DNA of 64,000 bases, from NCBI GenBank assembly GCA_009838515.1, contig VXRL01000040.1:32949-96948 (forward strand). Reading direction: 5' to 3'. Source of the stretch: Terriglobia bacterium (GTDB taxonomy: Bacteria; Acidobacteriota; Terriglobia; Bryobacterales; UBA6623). Positions 14,456 to 46,900 of the stretch are shown piece by piece (within the stretch, counting starts at the first letter, position 1; the number at the start of each line of letters is the position of its first letter). The translations under genes and the position numbers were made by a program. Under the pieces are notes generated by a model, which saw nothing but the letters and a program-made list of their open reading frames with translations, searched no databases and was not told the DNA's origin.

Positions 14456-14468
14456 CCATCCCAGCGCC

Positions 14469-20271: not shown

Positions 20272-21732
20272 ATGCGTCGGATAATTCCCTTCTCCGCTTA
20301 CGCGGACTCTCGGGCAGCGACAACGCTGCTAGCGGCAGTCATGTTCCTAGGCGGGCCGGGATGTGAAACACCTCCCAGCCGCCCGAATGTCGTCGTGATC
20401 ATGACCGACGACCACGCCACGCAGATGATGTCGGCATACGGTTCCAAGCGCGCGTCCACGCCGAACCTAGATCGGATTGCGCACGAAGGGATCATCTTCC
20501 GCAACGGCTTCTGTACGAATCCACTTTGCGCGCCCAGTCGCGCCACGCTGATCACGGGCAAATACAGCCACAAGAACGGGCAGCGCAGCAATCGAGACAC
20601 ATTCGATGGAAGCCAGCCCACGCTTCCGAAGCTGATGCGGAAAGCCGGATACCGGACAGCGATGATCGGCAAGTGGCACCTGAAGAGCGAACCAACCGGT
20701 TTCGACTACTGGAACGTACTTCCCGGCCAGGGCCGGTACCGGGATCCGTCAATGATCGAGATGGGCACGGAGCGGCGCCACAGCGGTTATGTCTCAACAC
20801 TCATCACCGATTTCGCGATCGATTGGATTCGCAACCGGGATAAGACACGCCCGTTCCTGCTATTTCTCCACCACAAGGCACCCCATGGACAGTGGGTGCC
20901 CGACACCAAGCACGAAGACCTGTTCGCGAATCAGGATGTTCCTCGACCGGAATCGTTTGACGATAGCTATGCCGGGCGGGCCAGTCCCATCCGCGATGCC
21001 ACGAACCGGCTGGTTCCGGACCTGCTTGCCCGCTGGCGAACGTGGGGTGCAGCACTGGCGAAAGAGGATCCCGGGGACCTCGCAGGAGAAGAGCTCACCG
21101 ACTGGATGTATCAACAATACGTCAAGGACTACAAGCGCGTGATGGTCTCGGTCGATGAAAACGTAGGGCGGTTTCTGGACTTCCTCGAGGAGGAAGACCT
21201 CGCGAACGACACTCTCTTGATCTATACCTCCGACAACGGGAAGTTCGTCGGCGATCATTCGATGTTCGACAAGCGGCTGGCGTATGAGGAATCGCTCCGG
21301 ATTCCGGTCGCGATCCGATATCCAAGAAAGATCGCGGCTGGAAGCGAAACAGATGCCTTCGCGCTAAATGTCGATTTTGCGCCCACGATACTCGACTATG
21401 GCGGTGTCGCCGTGCCTGAAGACGTGCAGGGCCGCAGCCTGCGGGCACTCTTGGAAGGGCAGCAACCTTCCGACTGGCGGAACTCGTTCTACTTCCAGTA
21501 CTTCGAACCGCCCGGAGGCCACAATGTCGCTCCTCACTATGGCGTCCGCTCAATGCGCCATAAGCTTGTCCGCCACGAAGTTGGCGACGGCATCTGGGAG
21601 TTGATCGACCTTGAATCGGATCCGCTGGAGTATCGCAACGAATACGAGAATCCGAGCTATTCAGCTGAAGTCACGGCGCTTCGAGAGGAGCTTCAACTTC
21701 TGCGGCAGAGCCTCGAAGTGGCTGACGACTAG
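20272..21732 (+). CDS. Sulfatase (Cys-type), paralog of 40055..41590
   Basis: VVVIMTDDHA, active-site CTNPLCAPSRATLITGKYSHKNG, GKWHLKSEPTGFDYWNVLPGQGRY, TSDNG. Confidence 0.9.
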   Translation: MRRIIPFSAYADSRAATTLLAAVMFLGGPGCETPPSRPNVVVIMTDDHATQMMSAYGSKRASTPNLDRIAHEGIIFRNGFCTNPLCAPSRATLITGKYSHKNGQRSNRDTFDGSQPTLPKLMRKAGYRTAMIGKWHLKSEPTGFDYWNVLPGQGRYRDPSMIEMGTERRHSGYVSTLITDFAIDWIRNRDKTRPFLLFLHHKAPHGQWVPDTKHEDLFANQDVPRPESFDDSYAGRASPIRDATNRLVPDLLARWRTWGAALAKEDPGDLAGEELTDWMYQQYVKDYKRVMVSVDENVGRFLDFLEEEDLANDTLLIYTSDNGKFVGDHSMFDKRLAYEESLRIPVAIRYPRKIAAGSETDAFALNVDFAPTILDYGGVAVPEDVQGRSLRALLEGQQPSDWRNSFYFQYFEPPGGHNVAPHYGVRSMRHKLVRHEVGDGIWELIDLESDPLEYRNEYENPSYSAEVTALREELQLLRQSLEVADD

Positions 21733-23379: not shown

Positions 23380-24249
23380 ATGCAAACCATGAAGCCACGA
23401 TTCCTACTCCGCGCCTGTCTGGCACTCTGCTGGGCTCTTCCTTTCCTTGTTGGTGTACCAGCCAATGCCCAGTCGTTCGCCGTTCCCGCTGATGCCGAAT
23501 CCGCGCTGGATGCGCTGAACGACTCGCCACGTCACGGGGAGTGGATCGACATTGGTGAAGGGCGCTCTCGCGCGAACCGCTGGGGCGATACGATTCGCTC
23601 GTGGATCGTATACCCCGAACGAGCGACCCGCGCCCCCGTCGTCGTAGTGATCCACGAGATCTTCGGCCTGACGGACTGGATCCGTGCCGTGGCCGATCAA
23701 TTCGCGGCGGAAGGCTTCATCGCCATAGCGCCTGACTTGCTATCCGGTCATGGTGCCGACGGAGGGGGCACTCCGGCGGACCGCCAGCAGGCGGTAGCTC
23801 TCGTTCGATCCCTGCGCGTCGAAGACACTACGCGGCGACTGTCGGCAGTCGCCCGCTACGGACTATCACTGCCAGCTTCTAGCGGCAACTTTGGCGCCGT
23901 AGGATTCTGCTGGGGCGGCAGCACGAGCTTCAATTTCGCAGCCAACGAAGAGGACTTGGACGCGGCCGTCGTCTATTACGGCAGCTCTCCGAACCGGACG
24001 ATGCTCGGGCGCGTTGAAGCCCCTGTCCTCGGCTTGTACGGCGGGGATGATGCCCGTGTCAACGCCACCATTCCAGATGCGATGCGCGAGATGCGACGCC
24101 TCGGGAAGTTCTATGAACCTCACCAATTCGCCGGTGCGGGCCATGGATTCCTGCGACAACAGTCCGCCCGAGACGGCGCGAACATGAGTGCCGCCAGGGC
24201 GGCCTGGGCTAAGACGATCGAGTTTTTCCGCCAGTACCTCGAGAACTAG
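23380..24249 (+). CDS. Dienelactone hydrolase family protein, exported
   Basis: Signal peptide. VVVIHEIFGLTDWIRAVADQFAAEGFIAIAPDL, GAVGFCWGG nucleophile region, C-terminal GAGHGF. Confidence 0.85.
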   Translation: MQTMKPRFLLRACLALCWALPFLVGVPANAQSFAVPADAESALDALNDSPRHGEWIDIGEGRSRANRWGDTIRSWIVYPERATRAPVVVVIHEIFGLTDWIRAVADQFAAEGFIAIAPDLLSGHGADGGGTPADRQQAVALVRSLRVEDTTRRLSAVARYGLSLPASSGNFGAVGFCWGGSTSFNFAANEEDLDAAVVYYGSSPNRTMLGRVEAPVLGLYGGDDARVNATIPDAMREMRRLGKFYEPHQFAGAGHGFLRQQSARDGANMSAARAAWAKTIEFFRQYLEN

Positions 24250-24253
24250 TCCC

Positions 24254-25702
24254 ATGCGCCCGACTCTGCCAATCCCCTTCCAAGTCGCTATCGGCCTGAT
24301 TGTGCTCGCAATGCCGGTTCCGTCGGCCACCAACGTGGTTTTCATGATGGCCGACGACCTCGGTTGGAACGACGTCGGCTACCACGGGAGTGAGATCCGC
24401 ACGCCGCAGATCGACTCAATCGCGCAGCGCGGCCTCCAACTCAACCGCTACTACGCAACGCCTCTTTGCAGTCCGACGCGGGCTGCGTTTCTGACTGGCC
24501 GAATCCCGCTGCGGTACGGAGTTGACCGACCGATCGAAACGCAGGGAGGTCTGCCGGAAACAGAGCTCCTGCTGACGGACGTGCTCAAAGCTGCTGGATA
24601 CGAAACGGGAGTGGTGGGGAAATGGCACTTGGGATTGGCGCATGTCAAGCATCATCCCAACAGCCGCGGTTTTGACACCGCATACGGCCACTTGGGTCCC
24701 GCGGTCGACTATTGGACGCACATCTGGGACGGCGGCCTCGACTGGCACCGCAACGGCAGCGTGCTGAATGAGGAGGGCTACACGACCGAGCTGATCGGCA
24801 AGGAAGCGGAGCGCGTGATCTCGGAGCGCGATAAGACCAAACCGTTGTTCCTGTATGTCGCATTCAACGCGCCGCACGGCCCTCTGCAAGCCCCAGCTGA
24901 GTCCGAGTCCGCATACGCTTCGATCCAGAATCCGCGCCGCCGAACCTATGCAGCGATGGTGAGCGAGATGGATCAAGCAGTCGGCGGGATCCTAGGAGCG
25001 CTGGAGCGAGAGGGGCTGACTGACGACACATTGATCGTATGGTGCAGCGACAACGGAGGAGCCGTTCGTCTGGGAGCGGACAATTCGCCGCTCCGCGGCG
25101 GCAAGGGCGGCTCGTTCGAAGGCGGAATTCGCGTGCCCGCTACAGTTTGGATGCCCGGCAGTATCGAGGGTGGCCGGACCTTCACCCAAATGATGACGGT
25201 AGCGGACTGGTTTCCGACCATCGCGACCGCCTTAGGAATTGACCTAGAAGCGGACAGCCAGCTGGATGGCCTTGACATGTGGCCAGCCCTAACCAAGGGT
25301 GATGTCGTAGACCGCACGGAACCCTACGTAGTCGGCGTGTTCGACAGCGTAGCGCTGATTGATGGGTCTTGGAAGTACGTTGAGCCCCTGCCCAGAGGTG
25401 GCAGTGGCGTCGCACATCTTTTTCGTCTGGATAGAGATCCGGAAGAGCGTGAAGATCTGGCAGAAGTGGAGCCGGAAAGGTTCGAACCTCGTCCTGCTCT
25501 GCACCGCATTACCCCGCTCACACCACACACCCCCCACCACCTGCCCCCCCCGCCGGGCCCCCGGCGGCGTCGTCCGGGAGGCCGGCCGCCTCCTAACGCT
25601 GGCGGCGAAGGGGCCAGAATGCCGCCGGGTCGCGGCGGTGGAGCGGTCGATGGCTGGAAGGAAATCACCAAGCCGCCCTGGGTCGAAGCGGCTGATCGGT
25701 GA
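24254..25702 (+). CDS. Arylsulfatase (Cys-type) with unusual Pro/Arg/Gly-rich C-terminal tail
   Basis: ORF 24188..25702 trimmed to the ATG at 24254, 4 nt after the DLH stop. VVFMMADDLGWNDVGYHG, active-site LCSPTRAAFLTGR, GKWHLG, CSDNGG...GGIRVP. Tail: HLPPPPGPRRRRPGGRPPPNAGGEGARMPPGRGGG. Confidence 0.9.
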   Translation: MRPTLPIPFQVAIGLIVLAMPVPSATNVVFMMADDLGWNDVGYHGSEIRTPQIDSIAQRGLQLNRYYATPLCSPTRAAFLTGRIPLRYGVDRPIETQGGLPETELLLTDVLKAAGYETGVVGKWHLGLAHVKHHPNSRGFDTAYGHLGPAVDYWTHIWDGGLDWHRNGSVLNEEGYTTELIGKEAERVISERDKTKPLFLYVAFNAPHGPLQAPAESESAYASIQNPRRRTYAAMVSEMDQAVGGILGALEREGLTDDTLIVWCSDNGGAVRLGADNSPLRGGKGGSFEGGIRVPATVWMPGSIEGGRTFTQMMTVADWFPTIATALGIDLEADSQLDGLDMWPALTKGDVVDRTEPYVVGVFDSVALIDGSWKYVEPLPRGGSGVAHLFRLDRDPEEREDLAEVEPERFEPRPALHRITPLTPHTPHHLPPPPGPRRRRPGGRPPPNAGGEGARMPPGRGGGAVDGWKEITKPPWVEAADR

Positions 25703-26192: not shown

Positions 26193-26271
26193 GGCCACAC
26201 TAATGAGACCGCGATTCGTGCCCGGCCGATCGCGCCAAAGTAAGTAGGTCAGTCAGAGTTGGAAGTGTGTG

Positions 26272-26712
26272 ATGCCCGGGGAGGAACGTTTTCGCCAAGT
26301 CGTGGAACGCGGGAAATACGCCCCGCTGTATCGAAGGCTCCGCATGCGGTCAGGACGGCGATGGCGGGTCTCGTTCACGGATCTCGAGGCTGTGCTTGGT
26401 TTTACACTTCCAGCATCAGCGCGGCTGCACCGACCATGGTGGTCGAATCAGCGGAACACACGCGGCTATGGGCATTCGCTGGCCTGGCAACTCGCCGGAT
26501 GGAGGACGGCTGCGGTAGATCTTGAGCACGAATCGTTGGTGTTCGAACGTGAGGAGACCAGTGGCGAAAAGGCTCAGCCGCACGGTTCGCCAGCCCCTGC
26601 AGGCGGCAAGGCGATCGACCTTGACCGCGTGTTCCCGCCACACAACCCTGGCGATTCGCCAGCCGAATTGTCGTTGCGACGCGAGGATCCTTGCGACGAC
26701 CGAGGCCGTTGA
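26272..26712 (+). CDS. Hypothetical protein; possible antitoxin-position partner of the downstream PIN gene
   Basis: GTG-ATG at 26269/26272 after GGAAG. N-terminal ~95 aa (KYAPLYRRL...W.VSFTDLEAVLGFTLPASARLHRPWWSNQ...GHSLAWQLAGWRTAAVDLEHESLVFER) resembles a small conserved hypothetical family I recall but cannot name with confidence. The stop lies 7 nt before the PIN ATG. Confidence 0.5.
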   Translation: MPGEERFRQVVERGKYAPLYRRLRMRSGRRWRVSFTDLEAVLGFTLPASARLHRPWWSNQRNTRGYGHSLAWQLAGWRTAAVDLEHESLVFEREETSGEKAQPHGSPAPAGGKAIDLDRVFPPHNPGDSPAELSLRREDPCDDRGR

Positions 26713-26719
26713 GCAAAGG

Positions 26720-27153
26720 ATGTTCATTGAACCAACGTCCTGGTTCGAGCGCGCTTCGCGGTCGCGCCCAGCCATGACTTAGCTCGTGCCCGACTGCGTG
26801 AAGCTCTTGGGAGGGAACAGCGTCCCCGGATAAGTCGGCAGATCGTACGTAAGTACCTTGCGGTTGTGACACGCTCACAGATCTCGTCAGCGCCATTGCC
26901 AATGTCGGCTGCACTCCGGGACGTTGACTGGTTCGTATCTGAGTTCGACATCTTGGAATACGGACCCCATGTCACCCACCTGTTGGCCGAGCTGTGTCGA
27001 GCGGTTCCAGTTGCGGGACGCCAGATCCATGACGCCAATATCGTGGCGACGATGCTCGCGCATGCCGAGCAGCGCCTGCTCACATTCGACCAAGACGACT
27101 TCCGCCGCTACGGTAGTCGGATCTCGCTGATCGATCCAGCACGGAGCGATTGA
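26720..27153 (+). pseudogene. PIN-domain (VapC-like) toxin gene disabled by a 1-nt deletion in codon 4
   Basis: ATG TTC ATT GA-ACC AAC GTC CTG GTT. Read in frame it gives MFIEPTSWFERASRSRPAMT*. Restoring one base after GA gives MFI(D)TNVLVRARFAVAPSHDLARARLREALGREQRPRISRQIVRKYLAVVTRSQ...GRQIHDANIVATMLAHAEQRLLTFDQDDFRRYGSRISLIDP, a full-length PIN pattern (DTN..., ...HDANIVATM..., LLT.D..DF). Confidence 0.65.
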
Positions 27154-27531: not shown

Positions 27532-29166
27532 TCATGGGCTCGAATTGCCCTGTCTGTCCACCTGCAACTGACCTAGCTCTCGTGCGAGCGATTCCTTGCG
27601 CCGAAAGTCCGCAGGTGTCTCTGCAGGGTTCCAGTACCAAGGGTGGTCGACGTGCTCTCCGTGCATGATCCGCTCCATTTCAGCGACGACCCCGGGATAT
27701 GCATCCGCGAGGTCTCGCTCGCAGCTGACGTCTTCCTCGATCAGAAACAGCTCCATCGGATCGTCGGGAGTTCGGCGGTAGGCCTTCCACGGACCCTTGC
27801 GGACCGCCTGTTCCCTGGCGTTCTCCCAATAGAGCGGCCTGTCTGAGGAGAACCTCGCCGGATCGCCACTCAATAGCGGGACAAGGCTGGACCCGTCGTT
27901 TGGTGGGACAGGGCTGGTTCCCGCCAGCTCAGCGAATGTCGGAAGCAAGTCGACGAGCCATACGGGCACGCTGGACACGCCGGCCTTGATCGCGCCGGGC
28001 CAGTTCACGAAGAAGGGGATGCGAATGCCCCCTTCTAGCAGGGAGAATTTCCCTCCCCGAAAGGGCCCCTTGTTTCGAAAGAACGGATCGTCCGGCCAAT
28101 TCGCGGACTGGTTCCCGCGCGCGAAATACCCGCACATCGAGTAGCCGTTGTCCGACGCGAAGACCACGAGAGTGCGATCCCGGATCCCGAGGCTTCCAAG
28201 CAGGTCAACCAGTTCGCCCGCAAACCTGTCGATCCGCAGCACCATGGAAGCCCACTCCTTGTGTGCTGTCGAGGGAAAGTCCGCTCGGTTCAGGAATGGG
28301 CCGAGGGCATCGGTCACGACCGGCCCGTGGGGCAGCTGGGTCGCAAAATAGAGAAAGAACGGTCGGTCCCGGTTGCGACCCACGAAGCCGATGGCTGCGT
28401 CCTCGAGCACGTCCTCGGAATAGACTGCCTGCGAACGGTCTCGGACGCCGGGCGGAATCAGTCGGCCGTCGCTGTCGTAGCGGGCCGCGGAGTCTCTGGA
28501 TCCGGGCGGTTGCCGGTTTTCCTCGTACATGTTGCGCATGTCGAAACCGAAGTTCCCCGGATAGTCGACCTTGCGGCCATTGCGATAGAGGTAGCGGGGG
28601 AAGAACGTGTGAGCGCGGCGCTGATCGTAGAATCCGAATGCCTCGTCAAAACCCTGCTTTTCTGGAGTCCCCGGAGTGCCGGGAAGGCCAATGCCCCACT
28701 TGCCGAAGAAGCCGGTCGCATACCCGGATCGCTTCAGCATCTCGGAAATCGTCACGTCCGAGTCCGCCAAATGATCCTGCCCTCTCGCGCTGCGGTTATC
28801 GCGAACTGATGCATGGCCCGTATGCAGTCCCGTCATGAGGGTCCCTCGGGAAGGAGCGCATTCTGGGGCGCCGGCGTACGCTTGTGTGAAGCGAACTCCT
28901 TCCGCCGCGAGCCGATCTAGGTTTGGAGTCGAGAAGCGGATCTGTCCCCAGATACTGAGATCCCGGTAGCTGAGGTCGTCCGCCAGAATGACGACGATGT
29001 TCGGCTTGGTGCCGGGCAGCGGCGGCTGGGCCTGCAGAGCTCCCGGAATGAGCAAGAGGCAGATAACCGCGAAACGCACCACGGGGGCAAGAATAACAGC
29101 CTGGGACGAGCCCACTTCGTGACCAGGACTACCCGCCACGATTGCCGGGCTCGGCCGTAGCCCCAC
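27532..29166 (-). CDS. Sulfatase (Cys-type), exported
   Basis: IVVILADDLSYRDL, active-site PECAPSRGTLMTGLHTGH, GKWGIG, ASDNGY...GGIRIP. Start uncertain: ATG at 29166, or GTG at 29082/29079 giving a cleaner signal peptide (VVRFAVICLLLIPGALQA). Confidence 0.9.
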   Translation of the reverse strand: MGLRPSPAIVAGSPGHEVGSSQAVILAPVVRFAVICLLLIPGALQAQPPLPGTKPNIVVILADDLSYRDLSIWGQIRFSTPNLDRLAAEGVRFTQAYAGAPECAPSRGTLMTGLHTGHASVRDNRSARGQDHLADSDVTISEMLKRSGYATGFFGKWGIGLPGTPGTPEKQGFDEAFGFYDQRRAHTFFPRYLYRNGRKVDYPGNFGFDMRNMYEENRQPPGSRDSAARYDSDGRLIPPGVRDRSQAVYSEDVLEDAAIGFVGRNRDRPFFLYFATQLPHGPVVTDALGPFLNRADFPSTAHKEWASMVLRIDRFAGELVDLLGSLGIRDRTLVVFASDNGYSMCGYFARGNQSANWPDDPFFRNKGPFRGGKFSLLEGGIRIPFFVNWPGAIKAGVSSVPVWLVDLLPTFAELAGTSPVPPNDGSSLVPLLSGDPARFSSDRPLYWENAREQAVRKGPWKAYRRTPDDPMELFLIEEDVSCERDLADAYPGVVAEMERIMHGEHVDHPWYWNPAETPADFRRKESLARELGQLQVDRQGNSSP

Positions 29167-29338: not shown

Positions 29339-30580
29339 ATGACGAGAATTCCATTGATTCTGCTTGCGTTTGCGAGCGTCGCTGCGGCGCAGTCAGGACC
29401 GTGCATGGCGGATGCCTTCCTTGACGTTTCGGAGGCACCCGGAGCCGGTCCCGCCTATCCCCGCCCTCAGGTCGAGGCTACATGCGAGGGCGATGAGCTG
29501 GTAGTTCGTTCGAATAGCATCCCGCACTACGAGTTTGTCCAAGTCACCCCGAACCCGCTCTTGGAACGGAACAACGTGTACCGTCTGCCGGCCAAGCCCG
29601 AACTGGCCGACAAGCCGGTGCCGATCCCCCTGCTTGGCGGAATCGGCGTAGCGGTCAATGGCATCGTGATATTCGGCCCGAACGAAGGCCCAGTACCAGC
29701 AGAGGAACAATTCGGCGATCCGGTGTTCAACGCCATCATGGATGCCTGCATGGGCCACACGGCGCTGGAATACCACTATCACGCCATGGTGCAGCGCTGC
29801 CTGAGTCTAGGCGCGAAGGATGGCGAGCCGTCGCCCGTCCTAGGCTTCGGCTACGACGGCATTCCGATCCACGGTCCGTGGGGCTGTGTGGACGCCGATT
29901 GCAGCAAGGTGGTGCGCCACCGCAGCAGTTGGGAAGAGGTTCGCGAGCCGCATCAGGACGCTTGGGACGCCTACGACTACGTCGAGAAGGACGGGCCGGA
30001 GTACCTCGACGCCTGCAACGGGCACACCCATGGTGACGGCGACTACCACTACCACGTGACCGAGACTTGGCCGTACATCCTTGGCTGCTATGCCGGCACC
30101 CCTACGGGCGGTCCCGTCCGTGGTCGCCGCCGCCCTGAAATCAGCCAAACTCCTCCTGGGCAGCGGGGCCAGCGCCCGCCGGTCGGCCCGGCCGGGAACC
30201 GACCTCCCGGGGCAGCACGGCGGGGCGGCCCACCGCCCGGTGGCAGCCGTCCCGGGCCGGACGAAGTGCAGGCCGTCGCCACAGCCTTGAAAAGGGACGC
30301 GAGCGAAGTGGCCAAAGCCCTGCGCGTGGAGCCGGGCGGCATCAAGCCGACCAACCTTGCGGCTTCCGCACGGACGCTCGGTGTGGACACCGGCGAGTTG
30401 ATCGAGTCCATGGGAAGGACCCCGCCGCGGCCGCGCCAGCGACAGAACCAGGCCCCGCCAGGCGAGCCGGAGTGCTTCTTCCGCTGCGGCCAGAGCGACG
30501 AGAACGCAGTCGGCTGCACTCTGACGCCGGATTACAAGGTGCTGTGCTTCAGGCCTTGCGACGACAACAAGTGCGGGTGA
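29339..30580 (+). CDS. YHYH-motif protein (exported) with Pro/Gly/Arg-rich linker, helical module and 6-Cys C-terminal tail
   Basis: ORF begins at TTG 29324; ATG at 29339 preferred (GAGGA 8 nt upstream; signal peptide MTRIPLILLAFASVAAAQ). Motifs IPHYEF, NGIVIFGPNEG, DACMGHTALEYHYHAM, DACNGHTHGDGDYHYHVTETWPYILGCYAG. Tail ECFFRCGQSDENAVGCTLTPDYKVLCFRPCDDNKCG. Confidence 0.8.
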   Translation: MTRIPLILLAFASVAAAQSGPCMADAFLDVSEAPGAGPAYPRPQVEATCEGDELVVRSNSIPHYEFVQVTPNPLLERNNVYRLPAKPELADKPVPIPLLGGIGVAVNGIVIFGPNEGPVPAEEQFGDPVFNAIMDACMGHTALEYHYHAMVQRCLSLGAKDGEPSPVLGFGYDGIPIHGPWGCVDADCSKVVRHRSSWEEVREPHQDAWDAYDYVEKDGPEYLDACNGHTHGDGDYHYHVTETWPYILGCYAGTPTGGPVRGRRRPEISQTPPGQRGQRPPVGPAGNRPPGAARRGGPPPGGSRPGPDEVQAVATALKRDASEVAKALRVEPGGIKPTNLAASARTLGVDTGELIESMGRTPPRPRQRQNQAPPGEPECFFRCGQSDENAVGCTLTPDYKVLCFRPCDDNKCG

Positions 30581-31713
30581 TTCGGCCGGCGCTATTGGCG
30601 CTGGCCATCATCGCCGGGGTCGCAGCTTGGCCCCAGGAGCCGTTTCTGCCGGCAGTTGACCACTCCCAGCACCCCTTGATCGAGGTGGACGAGGCCGAAC
30701 CGACACCGTCGATGCGGATCCACATGGACGCCGATTCCATGGATGGATTTAACATCTTCTTGGAAACGCAGAACTTCCGCTTCACTCCTCAGAGCGTGGA
30801 CACGCTGCCGGTCTCGAACGAGGGCCATGCGCACCTGTATGTGAACGGCGAGAAAGTGGCTCGCATATACTCGCCCTGGCACCACCTCTCCAGCAAGCTG
30901 CTTCGCGACGGGATCAACCGTGTCGAGGTCGAGTTCAGCACCAACGACCATTCGGTTTGGGCCCTGGCCGGCGTGCCGATCGGCGCGGACGTGCTCATTG
31001 ATACACGCGTCATGGAAGGGGATCCAATCCTTCGTGAGGACGTCAGCTATACGCTGGACTGGGATTGGGGGGCGGCGGACCCTCGCCCAGACGGCGGCTG
31101 GACGGTTCGGACGGACAAGGGCTACCACGTGCAGGTCGATAGCGGTCAGATCGTCAGCCGAAATCTCGAACTGGTTCCGTGCCACGTAGCGCCCCCGCCC
31201 GCGCCGCAAGCGTCGATATTCGGCTGGCCCGGGCCAAGCCGGGTGTTTGCAGGGCACAGCAGCCTGATTCCGAACGAATCGAAGATCACTGCTTCATACG
31301 TGGAGGATCTAGCAGCACCGCGGGAGATATTTCTGGAGAAGCGGGTCGTCACCGATCCGGAGTACTGCCAAGCACACTACCTCTTGGCTCGTGAGCGAGG
31401 ATCCCCTCCGGGGTCTCTAACACTTGATGTTTCAGGCACATGGAGTAACTCTTCTGAGAAATCACGCCAGCCGTTCAATATCAGGTCCGCTGCTGCTTAC
31501 GGGGAGTTTAGGCCGTTGCAGCTTCGTGACGGTGTCAAGCTGGGCCGACGCCTGATCGTGGGTGGGATCGATGCCAGAGTGCGCCGCTGTCTGGACACAT
31601 TATTCAACGGAATCGACTTCGCGGACGGCACCTCAGACTCCGACGGCATGCAGGTCCTGCGAAACCTGGTGGCAGACACAACAGTGCTAGTCAACGATGT
31701 CAAAGGGCTCTAG
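30577..31713 (+). CDS. Hypothetical exported protein with His-rich motifs, translationally coupled to the upstream YHYH gene
   Basis: ORF 30472..31713 trimmed to the GTG at 30577, which overlaps the upstream TGA (GTGA). Hydrophobic N-terminus VIRPALLALAIIAGVAAW. Motifs HSQHPL, EGHAHLYVNGEKVARIYSPWHHL, NDHSVW. No family recognised for the C-terminal ~230 aa. Confidence 0.6.
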   Translation: MIRPALLALAIIAGVAAWPQEPFLPAVDHSQHPLIEVDEAEPTPSMRIHMDADSMDGFNIFLETQNFRFTPQSVDTLPVSNEGHAHLYVNGEKVARIYSPWHHLSSKLLRDGINRVEVEFSTNDHSVWALAGVPIGADVLIDTRVMEGDPILREDVSYTLDWDWGAADPRPDGGWTVRTDKGYHVQVDSGQIVSRNLELVPCHVAPPPAPQASIFGWPGPSRVFAGHSSLIPNESKITASYVEDLAAPREIFLEKRVVTDPEYCQAHYLLARERGSPPGSLTLDVSGTWSNSSEKSRQPFNIRSAAAYGEFRPLQLRDGVKLGRRLIVGGIDARVRRCLDTLFNGIDFADGTSDSDGMQVLRNLVADTTVLVNDVKGL

Positions 31714-31879
31714 CACCGGTGCAGTGTGAATCGTAAAGAGCTTGCAATAGTGGCGCTCCGTCAGTGCGATTGGATTCCGGTTCGGAAACAACGGCGCTCG
31801 AACCAGCGTCTTGCAGAGTAGCTGGGCGGGCGTGTTTCATTGATCGATCCGCCTGGCCAGACTCAGGAGATTGAATAAG

Positions 31880-33049
31880 ATGCCCGCGAGATCCCTCGTC
31901 TTCGCTGCCGTCGGGCCGGTCGGCCTGTTGCTGGCGTTACCCGCGGCCTCAGCAAACAACCCCTGTCCCAGTGATGCGTTCATGGATGTGAGCGATTCGC
32001 CGGGAGCGGGAGAGGGTTATCCCCGTCCGCGGCTAGAGGTCGAGTGCGCTAGCGACGAACTCGTGGTGAGCAGCAATGCCATTCCGCACTACGAATTTAT
32101 TCAAATCACCCCAAACCCGCTGGTCGAACTCAATCGCGACTACCGCATGCCGCTGAACCCGAAGCTGGCCGAACAGCCGAGCCCGCTGCCGCTGCTTGGG
32201 CCGTCCGGCGTCGCGATCAACGGGATTCCGCTGTTCGGACCGAACGAGGGCCCGGCACCCCCTCCGGGCTTCGGAGATCCAATCTACAACGCGATCATGG
32301 ATTCGTGCATGGGGCACACGGCGCGACAGTACCACTATCACGCGCTGATCGAGAGCTGCTTCGACATCGCGCGGGAGGCAAACGAGCCATCGCCGATTCT
32401 CGCGTTCGGCTCGGACGGTTTCCCGGTCTACGGTCCGTTCGGCTGCCGTGACAAAGAGTGCTCGGAGATCATCGAGTACCGGAGCAGTTGGGAGCGGCTG
32501 CGCGCGCCGCGGATAGACGCATGGGACGCGTATCGCTTCGTCCCGAAGAGTGGCATCGAGTACTTGGACCGCTGCAACGGCCACATCGGCGACGACCAAG
32601 GCGGTGCCTACCACTATCACGCTACGGCGACGTGGCCGTACATCATGGGATGCTTCTCCGGCACGCCCTCGGCCGATGCAGGCAGGGAATCAGATCGCCA
32701 AATCAGCCGTCGCGACGGCGGTCGGGGCCGCCCTCCGGGCGACGATCCCCGACCCACCGTCGAGCAAGTGGCTCGAGCAGCGGCTGAGCTGGCGATTGAC
32801 GAGGCGAAGCTCGCGGAAGCGCTGCGCTTGACCGACGGTCGGGTTGCGCCGATGAACTACGCCGCGGCCGCACGAGCCCTCGACATCGACGCACGAGACC
32901 TATATGAGGCGCTGGGAGTGACGGCGCAGTTGCCTCCGCCCGGCGCTCGGGGCGGTCTGGGCGGTCGCAGGCGTGGCATCGGGCCGCCGCTTCGAGGGAC
33001 CGTACCACGACGTAGGCCGCCGCCAGAGGGTCAGCGACCGCGACGGTGA
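31880..33049 (+). CDS. YHYH-motif protein (exported), paralog of 29339..30580
   Basis: ORF begins at TTG 31871; ATG at 31880 preferred (AGGAG 10 nt upstream). IPHYEF, NGIPLFGPNEG, DSCMGHTARQYHYHAL, DRCNGHIGDDQGGAYHYHATATWPYIMGCFSG. C-terminal helical module plus Pro/Gly/Arg-rich end. Confidence 0.8.
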   Translation: MPARSLVFAAVGPVGLLLALPAASANNPCPSDAFMDVSDSPGAGEGYPRPRLEVECASDELVVSSNAIPHYEFIQITPNPLVELNRDYRMPLNPKLAEQPSPLPLLGPSGVAINGIPLFGPNEGPAPPPGFGDPIYNAIMDSCMGHTARQYHYHALIESCFDIAREANEPSPILAFGSDGFPVYGPFGCRDKECSEIIEYRSSWERLRAPRIDAWDAYRFVPKSGIEYLDRCNGHIGDDQGGAYHYHATATWPYIMGCFSGTPSADAGRESDRQISRRDGGRGRPPGDDPRPTVEQVARAAAELAIDEAKLAEALRLTDGRVAPMNYAAAARALDIDARDLYEALGVTAQLPPPGARGGLGGRRRGIGPPLRGTVPRRRPPPEGQRPRR

Positions 33050-33307: not shown

Positions 33308-34522
33308 ATGCTTTCAACCCGCCTAGTTCTGTCCGCATGCTTGGTAATCGCAGCATTTGCCGCATGCGGCGGAACCGATCAGTCCACCGATACCAGCGGC
33401 GACGGCCAGGCTGTCCGCTCGCTCACCGCGGAGGAATACTACGACAAGATCCACGGCGCTTGGCTCGGCCAGGCAGTCGCGGGCGCATTGGGGATGAGCG
33501 TGGAGGGCATGCACCACAGCGACCTCAAGCCCTTCCTCACCGAGTTGGGGCAGTGGCCGCTCAACGATTACATCAAGACGTTGCATTCCCGGAGAGATCC
33601 GAACCGCAAGCAATGGTACGTAGCGGATAACTGGGGCCCGACCGGATTCGGGCCGGACGACGACTCCCTGTACCAAATCGCGAACCTCCTCCTGCTCGAG
33701 GAGAAGGGCCCAGACATCACGAGCCAAGATATCGCCGACAAATGGCTAGCGTCGTTCTCTGTGTTCGAGGCTCAGAACTGCGGACGGGCGGTCAGGGTCG
33801 CCGAAAAGCTTATGAAGGAAGGTGTCAAGCCTCCCGAGTCCGGCAAGCACGAATTCGGCGAGTTCATGGGCGGCCAGATGAAGGGCGAGTTCTGGGGCTT
33901 CATGCTGCCCGGCAATCCCGCGGCGGCGGCGGAGTACGGGCGCATCGATGCCGAGGTCTCGTTCCATACCGACGGCGTCTACGGCGAGATGTTCATGGCT
34001 GCCCTCACCGCCGAGGCATTCTTCGAGTCGGATCCGACGAAACTGCTCGAGGCCGGTCTTGCGACCATCCCCGAGGACTGCGACTACGCCCGGTGCATCC
34101 GCGACGTGATGACTTGGCACGGGCAATGGCCCGACGACTGGGAAAAGACCCACGAGCAGATCGACGCCAAGTGGGCTCCGGAGGGAAGCGAGAAGCAGCG
34201 CCGGGTGTTCCCGAACAACGCTGTCAACGCACTGGCGCTGCTATACGGCGAGGGTGACTTCGACAAGACGATCTCGATCGCTGTCATGGCCGGCTGGGAC
34301 ACGGACACGAACGCGGGAGACGTCGGGCCGGTCATGGGGGTCATCCTGGGGCCCGGAGCGATCGCCGAGAAGTGGACCGCGCCCATCGCGAACATTTTTC
34401 GCTCTGATGTCAAGGGCGCGGAGGAGTGGAAGATCGATGAACTGGCGCGGCGGACGGCCGATATGGGCATGCGAATGACCGAGGCAAAGTCCTCCGGGCT
34501 TGTTGAGATCGTCAGCGAGTAG
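33308..34522 (+). CDS. ADP-ribosylglycohydrolase-family protein with lipoprotein-type signal
   Basis: ORF 33257..34522 trimmed to the ATG at 33308 (GGAG upstream). MLSTRLVLSACLVIAAFAACGG signal. IHGAWLGQAVAGALGMSVEG N-terminal motif and MAGWDTDTNAGDVGPVMGVILG C-terminal motif, typical of the ARH/DraG fold. Confidence 0.75.
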   Translation: MLSTRLVLSACLVIAAFAACGGTDQSTDTSGDGQAVRSLTAEEYYDKIHGAWLGQAVAGALGMSVEGMHHSDLKPFLTELGQWPLNDYIKTLHSRRDPNRKQWYVADNWGPTGFGPDDDSLYQIANLLLLEEKGPDITSQDIADKWLASFSVFEAQNCGRAVRVAEKLMKEGVKPPESGKHEFGEFMGGQMKGEFWGFMLPGNPAAAAEYGRIDAEVSFHTDGVYGEMFMAALTAEAFFESDPTKLLEAGLATIPEDCDYARCIRDVMTWHGQWPDDWEKTHEQIDAKWAPEGSEKQRRVFPNNAVNALALLYGEGDFDKTISIAVMAGWDTDTNAGDVGPVMGVILGPGAIAEKWTAPIANIFRSDVKGAEEWKIDELARRTADMGMRMTEAKSSGLVEIVSE

Positions 34523-34634
34523 AGATCCTGCTGCCTGTCCAGCTGCTCAGGCAAGGCGTGGCTTACTCGCACGATCTGCTCCGCCACCGCCGGATCCGTT
34601 GGCTTGCGCAGCTCGGCTTGGCCGAGGAATCAAC

Positions 34635-36080
34635 GTGAACCCCTACTCTGGCACCGGCACACTTCGGCGGCGGGACCTTTTCGCGCTGGGAGCGGCCACG
34701 GCGCTTGCCGGCTGTCGGCAGGACGCTGCGCCTCGTCCCAATATCTTGTTCGCGATCTCCGACGACCAGTCCTTTGCTCATACCGGCGCTTCCGGCGATC
34801 CTGTCGTCCGCACGCCCGTGTTTGACCGCATTTGCGCCGAGGGAGTCCGGTTTGAACACGCATTCTGCAATGCGCCGTCATGCACCCCGTCCCGGGGAGC
34901 GATCCTAACGGGACAAGAGTGCTACCGCCTCGAAGAGGGCGTCAACCTGTGGAGTTCCCTGCCCGCCAAGTTCGTCACCTACCCAGACCTGCTCGAAGCG
35001 GAGGGCTACCACATTGGCTATACGCGCAAGGGGTGGGGCCCTGGAAGCATCGAGGCTGGGGGCCGCTCTCGCAATCCTGCAGGTCCAAGGTACGAGGACT
35101 TCCAGTCCTTCTATGAGGCCAATCCGTCCGGATGTCCGTTCTGCTTCTGGTTTGGCAGCAGCGACCCTCATCGCGCCTACGAGAAGGGTTCGGGCTTGGC
35201 CAGCGGCCTGCGCCCGGAGGATGTGCCTGTACCTCCGTTTCTCCCTGACGACCCCGAGGTTCGCAGCGACATCCTGGACTACTACTTCGAAATCGAACGC
35301 TTCGACCGCGAACTCGGCGAAATCCTGTCGTTCTTAGAAGAGCGAGGTCAACTCGCGAATACCGTCGTCATCGTCACCAGTGACAACGGCATGCCGTTTC
35401 CGCGCGCCAAGGCGGACCTCTACGACTACGGGGCGCGTGTTCCGCTGGCCATCCGGTGGCCCGCAAGTGTCCCCGGGGAACGCGTGGTCACCGATTTCGT
35501 CAGCTTGGTCGACATAGCCCCAACCATCCTTGAGTCCGCCGGAATCGAGATTCCAAGCGATATGACAGGCCGCAGCCTGCTGACGCTGCTGGAGTCCGGT
35601 GAAGACGGCCGCGTCGACGCCACTCGCGACCACGTGATCTCGGTGCTCGAGCGCCACACGCCGTGGCGCGAAGGCAGGGTGGGATACCCCAAGCGCGCGA
35701 TCCGCACGGATCAATTCCTGTACATCCGGAACTACGAGCCCGACCGCTGGCCAGGGGGCGATCCGCCAATCTTGGGAGAGGTCGATCCGTCGCCCACCAA
35801 GGAGTTCATGCGCGCGCGCAGGGACGAACCGGGGTTGAAGCGCTACTACGAAGCAGCATTCGCTAAGCGCCCGAGCGAGGAATTGTACGATGTCGAGCGC
35901 GATCCCGGGCAGATGAACAATCTCGCCGCCGACGAGGCGCACGCCGAGATCAAGAGCGCCCTGGCCGCGAGGCTCGACCAGCATCTTCTCGCAACGGCTG
36001 ATCCGAGAGCCCTTGGTCACCCCCCTACTTGGGAGTCGGATCCGCACCACGGCAGACTCACGCTGGAGCAGCGTCGCTGA
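34635..36080 (+). CDS. Sulfatase (Cys-type), Tat-lipoprotein signal
   Basis: ORF 34500..36080 trimmed to the GTG at 34635 (GAGGA upstream). LRRRDLFALGAATALAGC (twin-Arg plus lipobox LAGC). ILFAISDDQS, active-site SCTPSRGAILTGQ, TSDNGMPFPRAK. Confidence 0.9.
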   Translation: MNPYSGTGTLRRRDLFALGAATALAGCRQDAAPRPNILFAISDDQSFAHTGASGDPVVRTPVFDRICAEGVRFEHAFCNAPSCTPSRGAILTGQECYRLEEGVNLWSSLPAKFVTYPDLLEAEGYHIGYTRKGWGPGSIEAGGRSRNPAGPRYEDFQSFYEANPSGCPFCFWFGSSDPHRAYEKGSGLASGLRPEDVPVPPFLPDDPEVRSDILDYYFEIERFDRELGEILSFLEERGQLANTVVIVTSDNGMPFPRAKADLYDYGARVPLAIRWPASVPGERVVTDFVSLVDIAPTILESAGIEIPSDMTGRSLLTLLESGEDGRVDATRDHVISVLERHTPWREGRVGYPKRAIRTDQFLYIRNYEPDRWPGGDPPILGEVDPSPTKEFMRARRDEPGLKRYYEAAFAKRPSEELYDVERDPGQMNNLAADEAHAEIKSALAARLDQHLLATADPRALGHPPTWESDPHHGRLTLEQRR

Positions 36081-40054: not shown

Positions 40055-41590
40055 CTATTCGTAGGCTGGTTCGGTCACCCCGTACGTCTTTCGCAAGCGT
40101 CCAAGTTCTTTCTTCAACTCGGCGGTAACGCTCTCCATCCCTGCTTGGCCGTAGATGCTCTGCGTTTCCTCAGGATTGCGCTCGAGGTCAAAGAGCTCCC
40201 ACTCGTCGCTTTCGTAGAACCGGATCAACTTGTATCGATGGGTCCTGACACCCTCATGTGCCGGAACGCCGTGCGCGACCTGGCTCTCGTAGTAGTGGTA
40301 GTAGAACGAGTCGCGCCAATTCCTCGGGACGTTGCCCTGCAAGAGCGGTACCAGGCTGCGACCCTGCATGTCGGGCGGGACGTCCACTCCGGCGACCTCC
40401 AAGAACGTCTCGGCGTAGTCAAGGTTCGAGACCAGCTCGCGACTGGTCGAACCGGGCTTGACAACGCCCGGCCAACGCACCACCAACGGCGTCCGCAGAG
40501 ACTCCCGATACATCCAGCGCTTGTCGAACCAGCCGTGCTCGCCTAGGTAGAAACCCTGATCCGAGCTATAGATGACAACCGTGTTCTCAGCCAATCCCGT
40601 CTCGTCGAGGTAGCGCAGGATCCTGCCGATGTTGTCATCGACGGAGGCGATGCAGCGCAGGTAGTCCTTGATGTAGCGTTGGTACTTCCAGCGAATCAGG
40701 TCCTTGCCTTGGAGGTTGGCCTTCTGCATCGCCTCGTTCTTGGGGCCGTAGACGGCATCCCACATCGCCTTCTGCGCGGGGGTCAGCCGCCCATAGCTGT
40801 TCATCCACTGCCGCAGCACGCGGTCGTCCTCCGGCGTGTCGGGTGGAGGATTGATCTTCAGGTCATGCGCCGAGACCATGTGCCGACCGATCTCCATCCG
40901 GTTCTCGGCGGCAGGCGAGGCCCGTCCCGAGTAGTCATCGAATAGCGTCGGCGGCTCCCAAATGTGCTGTCCGTCGTACAGCGAGAGATGTTCCGGGCCG
41001 GGCATCCAGTTGCGGTGGGGCGCCTTGTGCTGGCTCATCAGCATGAAGGGCTTGTCTTGATCGCGCCGTTCCTTGAGCCACTCCAAGGAAAGGTCGGTGA
41101 TGATGTCCGTCGTATACCCCTCGTGGCGGCGACGAGTGTCGTCAGGCCCGACGCGCATGTCAGGGTTGTAATAGGCACCCTGGCCCGGCAAGACTTCCCA
41201 GGCGTCGAATCCAGTCGGAGCAGTCTTGAGATGCCACTTGCCGAACATGGCGGTCTGGTAGCCCGCCGCTTGCAGCAGCTTCGGAAACGTCTGCTGCGAG
41301 CCGTCGAAACGCAGGCGGTTGTCCAAGACGCCATTGAGATGGCTGTATTTCCCCGTCAGAATCACTGCGCGGCTCGGCGCGCAGATCGAGTTCGTGACCA
41401 GAGCCCGGTCGAAGCGCATGCCCTCACGGGCAATGCGGTCGATGTTCGGGGTGTGGTTGATCATCGATCCATAGGCACTGATCGCCTGATAGGCGTGATC
41501 GTCGGTGAAGATGAAGATGATGTTCGGCTTGTCGGTCGCGAAAGACAGCGATGGCGCAAGTGCAAGGGCAAGCGTGGCAAGGATTCGCAT
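40055..41590 (-). CDS. Sulfatase (Cys-type), paralog of 20272..21732
   Basis: ORF trimmed to the ATG at 41590 (signal peptide [18 protein letters not shown]). [10 protein letters not shown], active-site [49 protein letters not shown]. Confidence 0.9.
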
Positions 41591-41752
41591 ATCGCTGTGA
41601 ATTCTACCGAATTGCCGGTCTTCGGGGCACGCCGCGCGGTGACCGGCGGTTGCGGGCCGCACATGTGTAAACCAACCAGGGCGGGTCCCAACTCGTGAGA
41701 TCGCGCCTCCTCGAGAGCACTTCGACCCGCTGTCTCAATACAATGGGCAGAA

Positions 41753-43974: not shown

Positions 43975-46900
43975 ATGCCACTGCCCCTTCCTAGATCGCG
44001 CAAAGCGCTTTGGCTGCTCGGCTTGGCGTTCGCCGTCCTGGCCTCGTTCGGAGTGTACCTAAACGCTCGCCCCGACATCCTGTTCCTCGGCTTTCCCAGC
44101 ATGTACCGCTATTTGCTGGCGGAGAGCGCCAGCCAGAGCGGCGTGCGCTACCACTACTGGAGCCCAGAGAAGTTGGACAACCCTAGGGCGGGCCAGCCGG
44201 ATTTCAGCGGCTACAAGGTGATCTACGTCAGCGGCCGGCGCTCCGATCCGCTGAGCCGCCCGGTGCGCCGCGCCCTTCAGGAGGCTGGCGAGTCGGGCTC
44301 CAAGGTGATCGTGCTACCGGCCCATGACACGGCCCGGCTCGGCGTGGGGAACGCCGACTTCAAGAAGGAAGACCGCTGGATCGACGACTACTGGCGGTTC
44401 GGCGGCGTGACCAACATGGCTCGTCTGCTGCAGACATCGGCCGCTCGCTACTCGGGCCAAGACGCCGAAATACTCCCACCGGAGCCAACGCCGGACGATG
44501 GCTACTACCATCCCGGGTCTCCAAGCCTCTTCACTACGACTGAAGATTACGAGGACTGGTACACACGCTCCGGCCGCTTCCAGCAAGGCAGCCCAAAGGC
44601 CCTGATTGACTTCGCCGATGGCTGGCGCCTGGGCATGAGCGGAGCAACCGATGCCATCGTGCGGGCGTTCGAAGAGGGAGGCTTCAACACGGCCGCCATC
44701 TTCGGCACCGCCCAGGCCGCCCCCTTCGCGCTGGAGTACGGGCCCGATATATTGATCTCACGCAAGCACGGCCGCTGGTGGCTCGGGGAGCAGGGCGTCG
44801 AAGTGCTGGAAGAAAGACTCGACGTCCCGATCCTGCGAGGTCTCTCGCTGTTGTTCACAGGCGAGACGTTCGGCGACTACCAGAAAACCCGCGCCGGCAT
44901 CCGCGACGCCGGCCTGATCATGGGCGCGATGGTGCCTGAGCTGGACGGAGCGATCCAGCCAACTCTGATCGAGGGCCTGGATTCGGCATGGTACGGCCGC
45001 CGCTCCGAAGCTTTCCGCGCCGAGCGCATCGACTTGCTGGTGCAGCGCGCCCGGCGCTGGGTCCGCCTGCGCAAGCTCGCGAATTCGGAGAAGAAGGTCG
45101 CGATCTTCTATGTGTCGGGAATCGGCAAGGGCAGGATTACCGCGGCCAGCCTCAACGTGCCGAGCAGCATGCTGCGCTTCCTGGCCGCGATGCGGCGAGA
45201 CGGCTATGCAGTCTCTGACCCACCATCGGACGAGCAGGCGCTGCTGGCGGAGATGCTCGACAAGGGCCGCAACGTGAGTTCGGGACGGCCGCGCGATCTG
45301 GAACGGCTGGCCGAACGCGAGGGCGTCCTGCTGCTCCCGGTGGACGGCTACCTGAGTTGGTTCGAGGGATTGCCGGATGCCATGCGGGCTGAGGTGATTG
45401 ATTCCTTCGGGCCGCCGCCGGGCGATCTGATGACCGTCGAACGGGACGGCCGGCAGTTTTTCGTGGTGCCCAAGCTTGACTACGGAAACGTGGTGGTGCT
45501 GCCCCAGCCTGTGCGCGGGGCTCAAATGGATGCCAAGCTTCAGCACAACGACAAGGTTCCCCCACCCCACCAATACCTTGCGGTGTATTGGTGGCTGCGC
45601 GAAGGCTGGCAGGCCGACGCCATCGTCAACTACGGCACGCACGGCACGCACGAATTCTTGCCCGGACGCCCGCTCGGCCAATTGGCTGACGACTGGTCAG
45701 ATCGCACCATCGGCCCGCTGCCCAACCTCTATGTCTATGTCATGGACAACGTAGGCGAGGCCCTGATCGCAAAGCGCCGGGGAGCGGCCGTGACGGTCAG
45801 CCACCAGATTCCGCCGGTGGAAGCTGCCGAAGTCGCCAAAGGCGAACCGAAGATAGCGTCTCTCTACCGTGCCTCCCGGCAGTTGCTCGATGCCGCGCCC
45901 GGCGCGCTCAAGGAACGCCTCCGAGAACAGGTCCGCACCATTGGCGCGGATCTCGAAATGGACCGCGACATCGAATCCGACTGGGCGATCGCGGCCCCTA
46001 CGGACCCCGAGGTGGAGAAGCTCGCGAACCACATCCACCTCATCAACGAAGACCGCATTCCGCTAGGCCTGCACGTTCACGGCCAGCCCAACACCCCCGA
46101 CGAGCTGGCACCCATGGTCACGGCCATGCTCGGCAACGAAGTTCTGGCGGGTTCGCCATGCCGCCCGGGCGCGGATGCAACCTGCCCCACTCAAGCCCGC
46201 GAGCGGGCGGAGGCCGCGGTCCGCCGCGCTCTGGCCGGCGACGCCCCTGTTCCGGCATTGGGACCTCTCGGCGCCAAGGTCGAGCGGATCGGCGCAGCCC
46301 TTGCCCAAACTCCCAACGAGATCAGCCACACGCTAGGCGCTTTGGCGGGGGCATACGTGCCGCCTGGCGGCGGCGGCGATCCGGTGCGCAATCCGCAGGC
46401 GCTGCCAACGGGCCGGAACCTGCACGGAATCAATCCGGCGGAAGTGCCGACCAAGGCGGCATGGGAGATCGGCACCAGCCTCGCAGACGCACAGCTGAAC
46501 GCAGAATTCGAGCGGCTTGGGCGCTGGCCCAGGAAGATCGGCTTCACGCTGTGGAATACCGAACTGATCCGCCAGCACGGCACGGACCTAGCCCATGTGA
46601 TGCACCTGCTCGGGGTGCGCCCGATTTGGGACCACAACAACGTGGTGGAAGACGTGGAACTGATACCCAGCGCCGAGCTGGGACGCCCGCGCGTGGACGT
46701 GGTGATCCAAGCGGCGTCGCTATTTCGAGACACCTTCCCGGATCGGATGAAGCTTCTCGACAAGGCCGTCCGGCTCGCTGCAAGCGCAACGGACGGGGAG
46801 AACTACATCGCCGAGCACGCCGAAGACGCCGAGCGGGAGCTCAAGCGATCCGGCATGGCCGCCAAGGATGCCAAGACTCTGGCGTTGGCGCGCATCTTCA

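Follow-up and report, generated by a model that had tools for sequence, protein, structure and literature searches.

A translationally coupled YHYH-family protein and its two-domain exported partner in a Bryobacterales genome

The locus and its three exported proteins

We analyzed a 64-kb stretch of DNA (the whole of which is referred to here as the window) from contig VXRL01000040.1, part of a Bryobacterales (Acidobacteriota) metagenome-assembled genome of a kind recovered from sponges. Three open reading frames (ORFs) on the + strand fill positions 29339-33049 of the window and encode two paralogous proteins of the YHYH family, which will be referred to as Y1 and Y2, and, between them, a protein that will be referred to as MID. 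The nearest loci to this cluster are those of Terriglobia SB0661_bin_30 (95%) and Bryobacterales RHO3_bin_40. Signal-peptide-like segments open all three proteins, and what is conserved in other genomes is the YHYH gene together with its partner MID, not the trio. The features of the locus, as located with hidden Markov models (HMMs) and AlphaFold2 (AF2) models, are as follows.

29339..30580, + strand: Y1, exported YHYH protein of 413 aa (Pfam YHYH); signal peptide, YHYH domain, Pro/Gly/Arg (P/G/R) linker, 4-helix module and 6-Cys tail
29399..30106, + strand: YHYH domain of Y1 (catalytic-type, predicted), from HMM coordinates and invariant columns
30113..30238, + strand: Pro/Gly/Arg low-complexity linker of Y1, residues ~259-300
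30239..30418, + strand: helical module of Y1, from AF2 helices
30452..30577, + strand: six-Cys C-terminal tail of Y1, CFFRCGQSDENAVGCTLTPDYKVLCFRPCDDNKCG
30571..31713, + strand: MID, exported two-domain partner; 378 aa from GTG 30577, probably 380 aa from GTG 30571
30649..31020, + strand: MID N-domain, residues 25-148; DHSQH leader, GHAHLYVNG, WHH and NDH
31021..31710, + strand: MID C-domain, residues 149-378; WxW, C202, AGH227, Y263-C264 and H267
31871..33049, + strand: Y2, second exported YHYH paralogue of 392 aa (Pfam YHYH)
31961-32674 and 32741-32977, + strand: YHYH domain and tail, respectively, of Y2, by HMM

An earlier reading of this DNA, made from its letters alone (the sequence-only reading), had placed two YHYH motifs in each flanking protein and had described the first of these as translationally coupled to the middle gene; we find the motifs at residues 145 and 236 of Y1 and 154 and 247 of Y2, and the stop codon of Y1 indeed overlaps the start of MID as GTGA (GTG at 30577-30579 and TGA at 30578-30580). 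Because homologues of MID begin MR[LV][IVT]R, the true start is probably the GTG two codons upstream, at 30571 (MRVIRP...), which would give a 10-nt overlap. Upstream of Y1 we detected no Rfam riboswitch and likewise no consensus promoter or terminator.

Membership of Y1 and Y2 in the YHYH family, which had been proposed from the motifs, is confirmed by Pfam model PF14240 far above its cutoff of 25 bits (E=2.4e-28 and 99.9 bits for Y1; E=1.7e-25 and 90.6 bits for Y2), with matches spanning model positions 2-193 of 193. The two proteins are 52% identical. The Cys/His motif that they were said to share holds in the form DxCxGH, although DACMGH and DACNGH, assigned to one protein each, are both from Y1, the corresponding motifs of Y2 being DSCMGH and DRCNGH. 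Internally, the YHYH domain is duplicated, and each half consists of NG/DG-xxx-GP, then DxCxGH, then YHYH; a profile comparison of one half with the other (HHalign) gave a probability of 97.6% (E=3.5e-12). Eight Cys residues are conserved in the YHYH domain of Y1 and six in its tail, and Y2 has eight. These even numbers, together with the signal peptides, fit export and disulfide bonding, in line with the exported state proposed by the sequence-only reading.

An AF2 model of Y1, built on an alignment of 122 sequences, has a predicted local distance difference test score (pLDDT) of 82 and a predicted TM-score (pTM) of 0.82, and the YHYH domain is modeled confidently over residues ~20-258. Across the 122 sequences, Asp-127, Asp-135, His-140, His-146, and His-148 of this domain are invariant, and His-239 is at least 90% conserved. 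This set agrees with the Zn site, made of a His triad and an Asp, that Iyer et al. predicted for the YHYH domains carried by phages (PMC7824862). The same study computationally predicted YHYH to be a Zn-dependent, phage-tail-associated hydrolase (PMC7824862), and, as the sequence-only reading had supposed, the family has no assigned function beyond this prediction: in the literature searched (PMC open-access papers and bioRxiv) we found no experiment on a YHYH domain, the relevant mentions being phage genomics and a diatom survey. A Foldseek search of the PDB with the AF2 model revealed no fold match for the YHYH domain, and sequence searches of the PDB with Y1 and with three family profiles returned nothing relevant. 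In BFVD, Foldseek matched the Y1 model to a YHYH-domain protein of cyanophage S-RIM14 (E=2.2e-13) and also to a Mimiviridae YHYH protein (E=5e-5).

The linker, helical module, and six-Cys tail that had been described are all present in Y1, and Y2 consists of a YHYH domain, linker, helical module, and Arg/Pro/Gly-rich C-terminus, without the Cys tail. Residues 262-300 of the Y1 linker have a pLDDT of <50, and this segment varies in length and sequence among homologues. The helical module is modeled as four helices (residues 307-317, 321-327, 340-347, and 351-357; pLDDT >90) that form two tandem AAxxLGxxxxxLxxAL units resembling helix-turn-helix (HTH) units. We considered whether the module might be a DNA-binding HTH and rejected this: no family model or fold was significant, the Foldseek alignments to HTH folds having E values of at least 0.4 and the winged-HTH match of Y2 in Pfam staying below threshold (E=0.04; 14.7 bits against a cutoff of 23). 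Pfam HTH models also faintly match a repeat-rich cyanobacterial YHYH homologue, and, because the protein is exported, DNA binding by the module would be implausible. The cyanobacterial YHYH proteins L082 6474-8096 (= P0185) and P0187 contain at least four tandem copies of the helical unit DLAAAARRLGISEQQLRNALGPPPP, and the helical module of Y1 and Y2 is, by its sequence, a two-copy version of this repeat. The tail cysteines of Y1 (Cys-379, -383, -393, -403, -407, and -412) are conserved as a set of six in Y1 orthologues and in a group of 398-aa paralogues, and other YHYH clades retain only a GC[TS]xTPxxxxxC hairpin. In the AF2 model, the tail is predicted at low confidence (pLDDT 57-77) as two hairpins.

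MID contains the motifs HSQHP, EGHAHLYVNG, SPWHHL, and NDHSVW (at residues 29, 82, 99, and 123) for which it had been described as a His-rich protein. In composition, however, it is not His-rich (12 His in 378 aa, or 3.2%), although nine of the 12 are invariant or at least 90% conserved in the full-length family. Nor is it a single unit: MID is a fusion of two independent and unrelated families, the N- and C-domains, and the idea that these domains are duplicates of one another was discarded on an HHalign probability of 0.1%. As a whole, MID has no match in Pfam or NCBIfam (E ≤ 0.1) or, by sequence, in the PDB, and its full-length family is small (86 clusters) and nearly confined to Bryobacterales. 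The AF2 model of MID (pLDDT 87, pTM 0.80) is all-beta. When it was compared with the PDB by Foldseek, the top TM-scores were for the copper-binding protein MbnP (7L6G; TM 0.28/0.34, probability 0.82, E 0.03); no match reached E ≤ 0.001, and the further fold matches were of a generic Ig/FnIII/carbohydrate-binding module (CBM) type.

Conservation of the YHYH-partner pair

Whether the partner is conserved beside YHYH genes in other genomes was a point raised by the sequence-only reading. A Y1-type gene lies directly upstream of MID in 29/36 full-length MID loci, with the gene ends overlapping or abutting, and the coincidence of the end of Y1 with the start of MID across these loci indicates that the coupling is itself conserved. 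A Y2-type gene is found within 8 kb of MID in 11 of the 36 (downstream in 10 and upstream in one, L022). Thus, the proposed uncharacterized three-gene system is real and conserved, but the conserved unit is YHYH plus partner, and Y2 is optional. The same pairing is seen in a metagenomic set of 42 C-domain loci, 25-44% identical to the query, which were found with a 15-sequence alignment of the standalone family. A YHYH neighbor on the same strand is present in 29 of these and absent from three that extend for at least 1.3 kb on both sides; the other 10 were too short to judge, so that 29 of 32 informative loci carry the pair. The arrangement thus recurs in dozens of independent loci and exceeds chance. 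Further, the association is asymmetric in that the partner seldom occurs without YHYH (3/32), whereas four of seven sampled YHYH genes have no adjacent partner, which fits an accessory factor serving a client enzyme.

The order and division of the genes vary among lineages, as in the following examples.

Cyanobacterial contig (NdhN and ribosomal genes alongside): N+C protein, then a 540-aa YHYH protein, in reverse gene order
Polyangiaceae: YHYH, then C-domain, then histidine kinase
L135 (5001-7519): YHYH, 173-aa N-domain gene, 253-aa C-domain gene, OmpR-type response regulator, histidine kinase
Rhodobacteraceae chromosomes and a Loktanella plasmid: YHYH, then an N-domain-only gene

At locus L135, the N- and C-domains are encoded by separate genes; MID is therefore a fusion of two partners, and we take this fission and fusion as evidence for a joint function of the three proteins. 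In L094 and L096, long ORFs had suggested YHYH-partner fusion proteins, an idea that was dismissed since the two domains are in different frames. CCP_MauG genes (encoding MauG/MbnH-type di-heme peroxidases) adjoin the pair at L093, L103, L106, and L108, forming a three-gene variant unlike the arrangement in the window, and two further loci, L092 and L095, have cytochrome c genes after the partner; neither the window nor any of the 36 Bryobacterales loci has a CCP/MauG-type peroxidase gene. Genes for response regulators and histidine kinases are frequent neighbors of the pair (L084, L087, L135, and L136). The Loktanella plasmid is that of Loktanella salsilacus (NZ_CP072995.1, 320773-324726; L131), on which a PAS sensor gene is followed by YHYH, YbhB/YbcL (PEBP), PEBP, YHYH, and an N-domain gene annotated as a "hypothetical protein"; this species is a culturable carrier of a related YHYH/N-domain system.

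The C-domain family comprises 492 cluster representatives at E ≤ 1e-3 (exhaustive HMMER search). The majority stand alone, are ~260 aa long, and begin with a hydrophobic segment, and a few N+C fusions occur in other lineages. The conserved columns are Tyr-158, Trp-162, Trp-175, Cys-202, Ala-Gly-His-227, and Tyr-263-Cys-264, with His-267 mostly conserved; Trp-162, which sits in a Trp-162-Asp-Trp-164 motif, is the sole invariant column of the broad family. Ten members that were searched against Pfam and NCBIfam had no match (E ≤ 0.01), and the family profile found no related sequence in the PDB at E ≤ 10, 7L6G included.

The N-domain has 474 genome matches and keeps different company. On its own, it is a secreted protein of ~150 aa found in hundreds of genomes, with Cyanobacteria, Rhodobacteraceae, Kangiella, and Patescibacteria among the lineages. 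Its conserved His residues are His-84, His-86, and His-125, with His-103 mostly conserved, and a His-rich leader (at least four His in the 50 residues ending 10 residues into the domain match) precedes the domain in 26 of 43 standalone proteins. The family is absent from Pfam, where only sub-threshold matches to DUF2846 were seen. The N-domain is joined C-terminally to a ZIP metal transporter in Melghirimyces and to a cytochrome c/Cu-monooxygenase-like protein in Chloroflexota and, in Trueperaceae, N-terminally to DsrE (the fusion loci are L069 7044-8345, L048 6243-8351, L049, and L062). The genes neighboring it encode CbtA/CbtB, CobW, CobN, CbiX, DsbD_2-ferric-reductase membrane proteins, cytochromes c, MauG-like peroxidases, and DoxX; those for CobN, CobW, CbiX, and CbtA/CbtB adjoin it directly at L058, L076, L077, and L129, and CCP_MauG genes adjoin three N-domain-only genes. 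Separately, we note that the window itself contains a CobN/Mg-chelatase gene (43975-47880, +), at a distance of 11 kb downstream from the cluster, which may be coincidence.

A proposed metalloenzyme with a dedicated partner, and the alternatives

The sequence-only reading had suggested metal or redox chemistry from the residue pattern, and on genomic context this is the best-supported reading. Specifically, we propose that Y1 and MID are an extracytoplasmic mononuclear-metal enzyme and its dedicated metal-delivery or redox partner, a reading to which we give a probability of roughly 0.45. This model accommodates the asymmetric co-occurrence, the joining and splitting of the two partner domains, the coupled translation, and the association of the N-domain with metal transport. 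Y1 (and Y2) would be a secreted, disulfide-stabilized enzyme, the pseudo-twofold YHYH domain of which probably forms the predicted mononuclear metal site from His-140 of the GH motif, His-146 and His-148, which as an HxH would share a strand in the first YHYH, and His-239 from the second YHYH, with Asp-135 or Asp-127 as a base or ligand. MID would be the dedicated partner of Y1, made at a fixed ratio to it through translational coupling. Its N-domain is a putative metal-binding beta-sandwich with three to four His ligands that may capture a metal ion or hand it over, and its C-domain, with the invariant Trp, the Cys pair, the AGH motif, and a further His, may be a YHYH-specific module that docks to the enzyme and either finishes the insertion of the metal or passes on electrons. 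For the N-domain, a candidate site of docking is the helical tail of Y1. The substrate may be a cell-surface or sulfated glycan, to which the sulfatase setting of this locus (described below) and the phage-tail, lectin, and fn3 associations of YHYH elsewhere point.

Several observations weigh against this model. Across the broad C-domain family, only one His (that of the AGH motif) and two Cys are at least 90% conserved, a small set for a metal site, and AGH227 belongs to a loop (residues 204-230) that is disordered in the AF2 model of MID (pLDDT <50). The contexts of the N-domain point to Co, Zn, Cu, and Fe and therefore do not single out a metal. Seven of the 36 MID loci, all in one clade of 46% identity (L026-L032), have no adjacent YHYH gene, although at least three genomes of this clade (L027, L030, and L031) carry YHYH genes elsewhere. 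The three YHYH-less C-domain loci of the metagenomic set are associated instead with a two-component system, a kinase and a sigma-54 regulator being encoded upstream, and with an ABC importer; the C-domain gene precedes that of a TOBE-domain ABC ATPase in two of them, in L114, as seen directly, and in L097, by analogy with the L100/L114 layout. Finally, among adjacent pairs, a helical tail on the YHYH protein mostly coincides with an N-domain in the partner (37 have both and 26 have neither), but a strict rule that one occurs if and only if the other does was rejected because of exceptions at L135 and L121 and in the tail-bearing paralogues of L132-L134, which have no adjacent partner. Given these exceptions, and because many of the concordant loci are from closely related Bryobacterales, the correlation is a lead only.

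The setting of the locus bears on the possible substrate. Five sulfatase genes lie in the window, and the other features that we noted are given with them below.

211-3627, - strand, and 8786-12148, + strand: two 1,100-aa outer-membrane beta-barrel proteins with CarboxypepD_reg N-termini, TonB-dependent-receptor-like
14307-17342, + strand: ORF of 1,011 aa with no Pfam match
20272-21732, + strand: sulfatase
24188-25702, + strand: sulfatase
26269-26712, + strand: small DUF7662 protein, between the upstream sulfatases and the cluster
26866-27153, + strand: partial PIN-domain ORF, likewise between them; with the DUF7662 gene, a possible toxin-antitoxin remnant
27532-29166, - strand: sulfatase
34500-36080, + strand: sulfatase
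40055-41662, - strand: sulfatase

YHYH paralogues in three other Bryobacterales genomes (L132, L133, and L134) are also flanked by sulfatase genes, and the DLH-sulfatase-YHYH-sulfatase layout recurs at L132. A Laminin_G_3 gene neighbors one YHYH gene, and another YHYH gene is fused to fn3. YHYH may thus be linked to the use of sulfated glycans or to sulfatase function, but the weight of this adjacency is uncertain, and it may partly be due to chance, because these genomes are sulfatase-dense.

Such a setting would also suit a pair whose partner handles no metal, in which YHYH is a glycan- or cell-wall-active enzyme and the beta-sandwich protein is a membrane anchor, a CBM-like substrate-binding subunit, or an adaptor to a two-component system, its His and Trp residues binding a ligand. 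The all-beta model of MID with its generic Ig/FnIII/CBM-type matches, the hydrophobic, anchor-like start of the standalone C-domain proteins, the response regulators and histidine kinases beside the pair, and the sulfatase, Laminin_G_3, and fn3 associations of YHYH genes are all consistent with this, as are the published associations of YHYH with phage tails and lectins (PMC7824862). The His-rich leaders of the N-domain and its links to ZIP, CbtAB, CobW, and CbiX are, however, hard to explain without metal binding; no carbohydrate-binding family model in Pfam matches MID, and with five sulfatases in 64 kb the adjacency may partly be chance. We consider this explanation unlikely. In the main rival to the metalloenzyme model, the metal has a different role and the pair matures in the manner of MbnP and MbnH: the C-domain of MID would then be a copper-binding end product, with the invariant Trp of its WxW motif oxidized, e.g. 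to kynurenine, and YHYH, either alone or with a MauG-like di-heme peroxidase, would be the modifying oxidase. The kynurenine of MbnP derives from a conserved WxW motif (PMC11951088), and the only fully invariant residue of the broad C-domain family, Trp-162, is within a WxW motif. MbnP also gives the top PDB TM-scores for the MID model, and genes for CCP_MauG or cytochrome c stand beside the pair at six loci and beside three N-domain-only genes. This scheme is distinctly unlikely, given that the Foldseek E value of the MbnP match is only 0.03, that neither MID nor the C-domain members match any Pfam or NCBIfam model and the family profile has no relative in the PDB (at the thresholds given above), that a CCP gene is missing from the window and from all of the Bryobacterales loci, and that YHYH has no heme motif or known oxidase chemistry.

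The tight, translationally coupled order of an enzyme followed by a small exported protein could also be that of a toxin-immunity pair, in which YHYH, for which a lytic hydrolase role on phage tails has been predicted (PMC7824862), would be a secreted cell-wall-degrading toxin and the downstream partner a periplasmic immunity protein. This we hold to be highly improbable because the asymmetry is opposite, YHYH often lacking the partner and the partner rarely lacking YHYH. Further, the partner carries invariant His, Cys, and Trp residues, the N-domain occurs independently with metal transporters, the gene order is reversed in cyanobacteria, and Pfam finds only YHYH in Y1 and no toxin-trafficking domain. 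Beyond the model of a metalloenzyme with a dedicated partner lies a bolder version of it, which we regard as a long shot: YHYH proteins and their N- and C-domain partners might constitute an unrecognized and widespread class of extracytoplasmic metalloenzymes, with a fold absent from the PDB, that are loaded or re-reduced by a possibly Trp-modified, MbnP-like partner and act on sulfated or cell-surface glycans by oxidation or hydrolysis, either as an analogue of a lytic polysaccharide monooxygenase with its redox partner or as a new sulfatase-linked route, the enzyme being one that phages would exploit on their tails.

Novelty and relation to known systems

Y1 and Y2 themselves belong, as ordinary members, to a known Pfam family that is functionally blank. 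Two findings are new: MID joins two families, neither of which is represented in Pfam, NCBIfam, or the PDB, and the C-domain family almost always neighbors YHYH genes, across phyla; in the literature searched, the pairing of YHYH with a partner is undescribed. YHYH is widespread in bacteria, cyanophages, giant viruses, and diatoms and has no solved structure, and a coupled partner that is kept from Acidobacteria to Cyanobacteria, Myxococcota, and Alphaproteobacteria provides an experimental handle on it. If it is true that the partner donates metal or electrons, the pair would represent a new class of extracytoplasmic metalloenzyme. In sponge symbionts, it may bear on the processing of sulfated host glycans.

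Three kinds of known proteins invite comparison. With the phage YHYH proteins of cyanophages and jumbo phages, which are tail-associated, Y1 and Y2 share both YHYH motifs, the His/Asp set, and the modeled fold. Unlike them, Y1 and Y2 are cellular, Sec-exported, and free-standing, with no fusion to tail, baseplate, or lectin domains; both have a P/G/R linker and a helical module, to which Y1 adds the 6-Cys tail, and they come with a dedicated partner gene, of which the phage literature makes no mention. ZinT, CopC, PCuAC, and YcnI are periplasmic metallochaperones or metal-binding proteins with His-rich leaders, and the N-domain family resembles proteins of this type in being small and secreted, in having a conserved HxH and a further His as well as a His-rich leader, and in occurring beside or fused to metal transporters. 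It differs from them in that it has no sequence match or significant fold match to any of the four (its all-beta fold having been modeled only within MID) and in that, in MID, it is fused to a second, YHYH-specific domain. MbnP-MbnH, CorA-CorB, and MopE are extracytoplasmic copper-binding proteins with a Trp-derived kynurenine that are paired with a MauG-like di-heme peroxidase. The pair described here would follow the logic of MbnP-MbnH in that an exported protein with a predicted beta-sandwich fold and a conserved WxW is encoded beside an exported enzyme that it appears to rely on, and MauG-like genes flank some of the YHYH-partner pairs. MID, however, has no detectable sequence relationship to MbnP, the fold match is weak (TM about 0.3), and the constant neighbor of the partner is YHYH and not a heme peroxidase. 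Overall, by analogy, the pair appears to resemble in kind the known pairs of an exported metalloprotein and a dedicated partner, while being built from different families.

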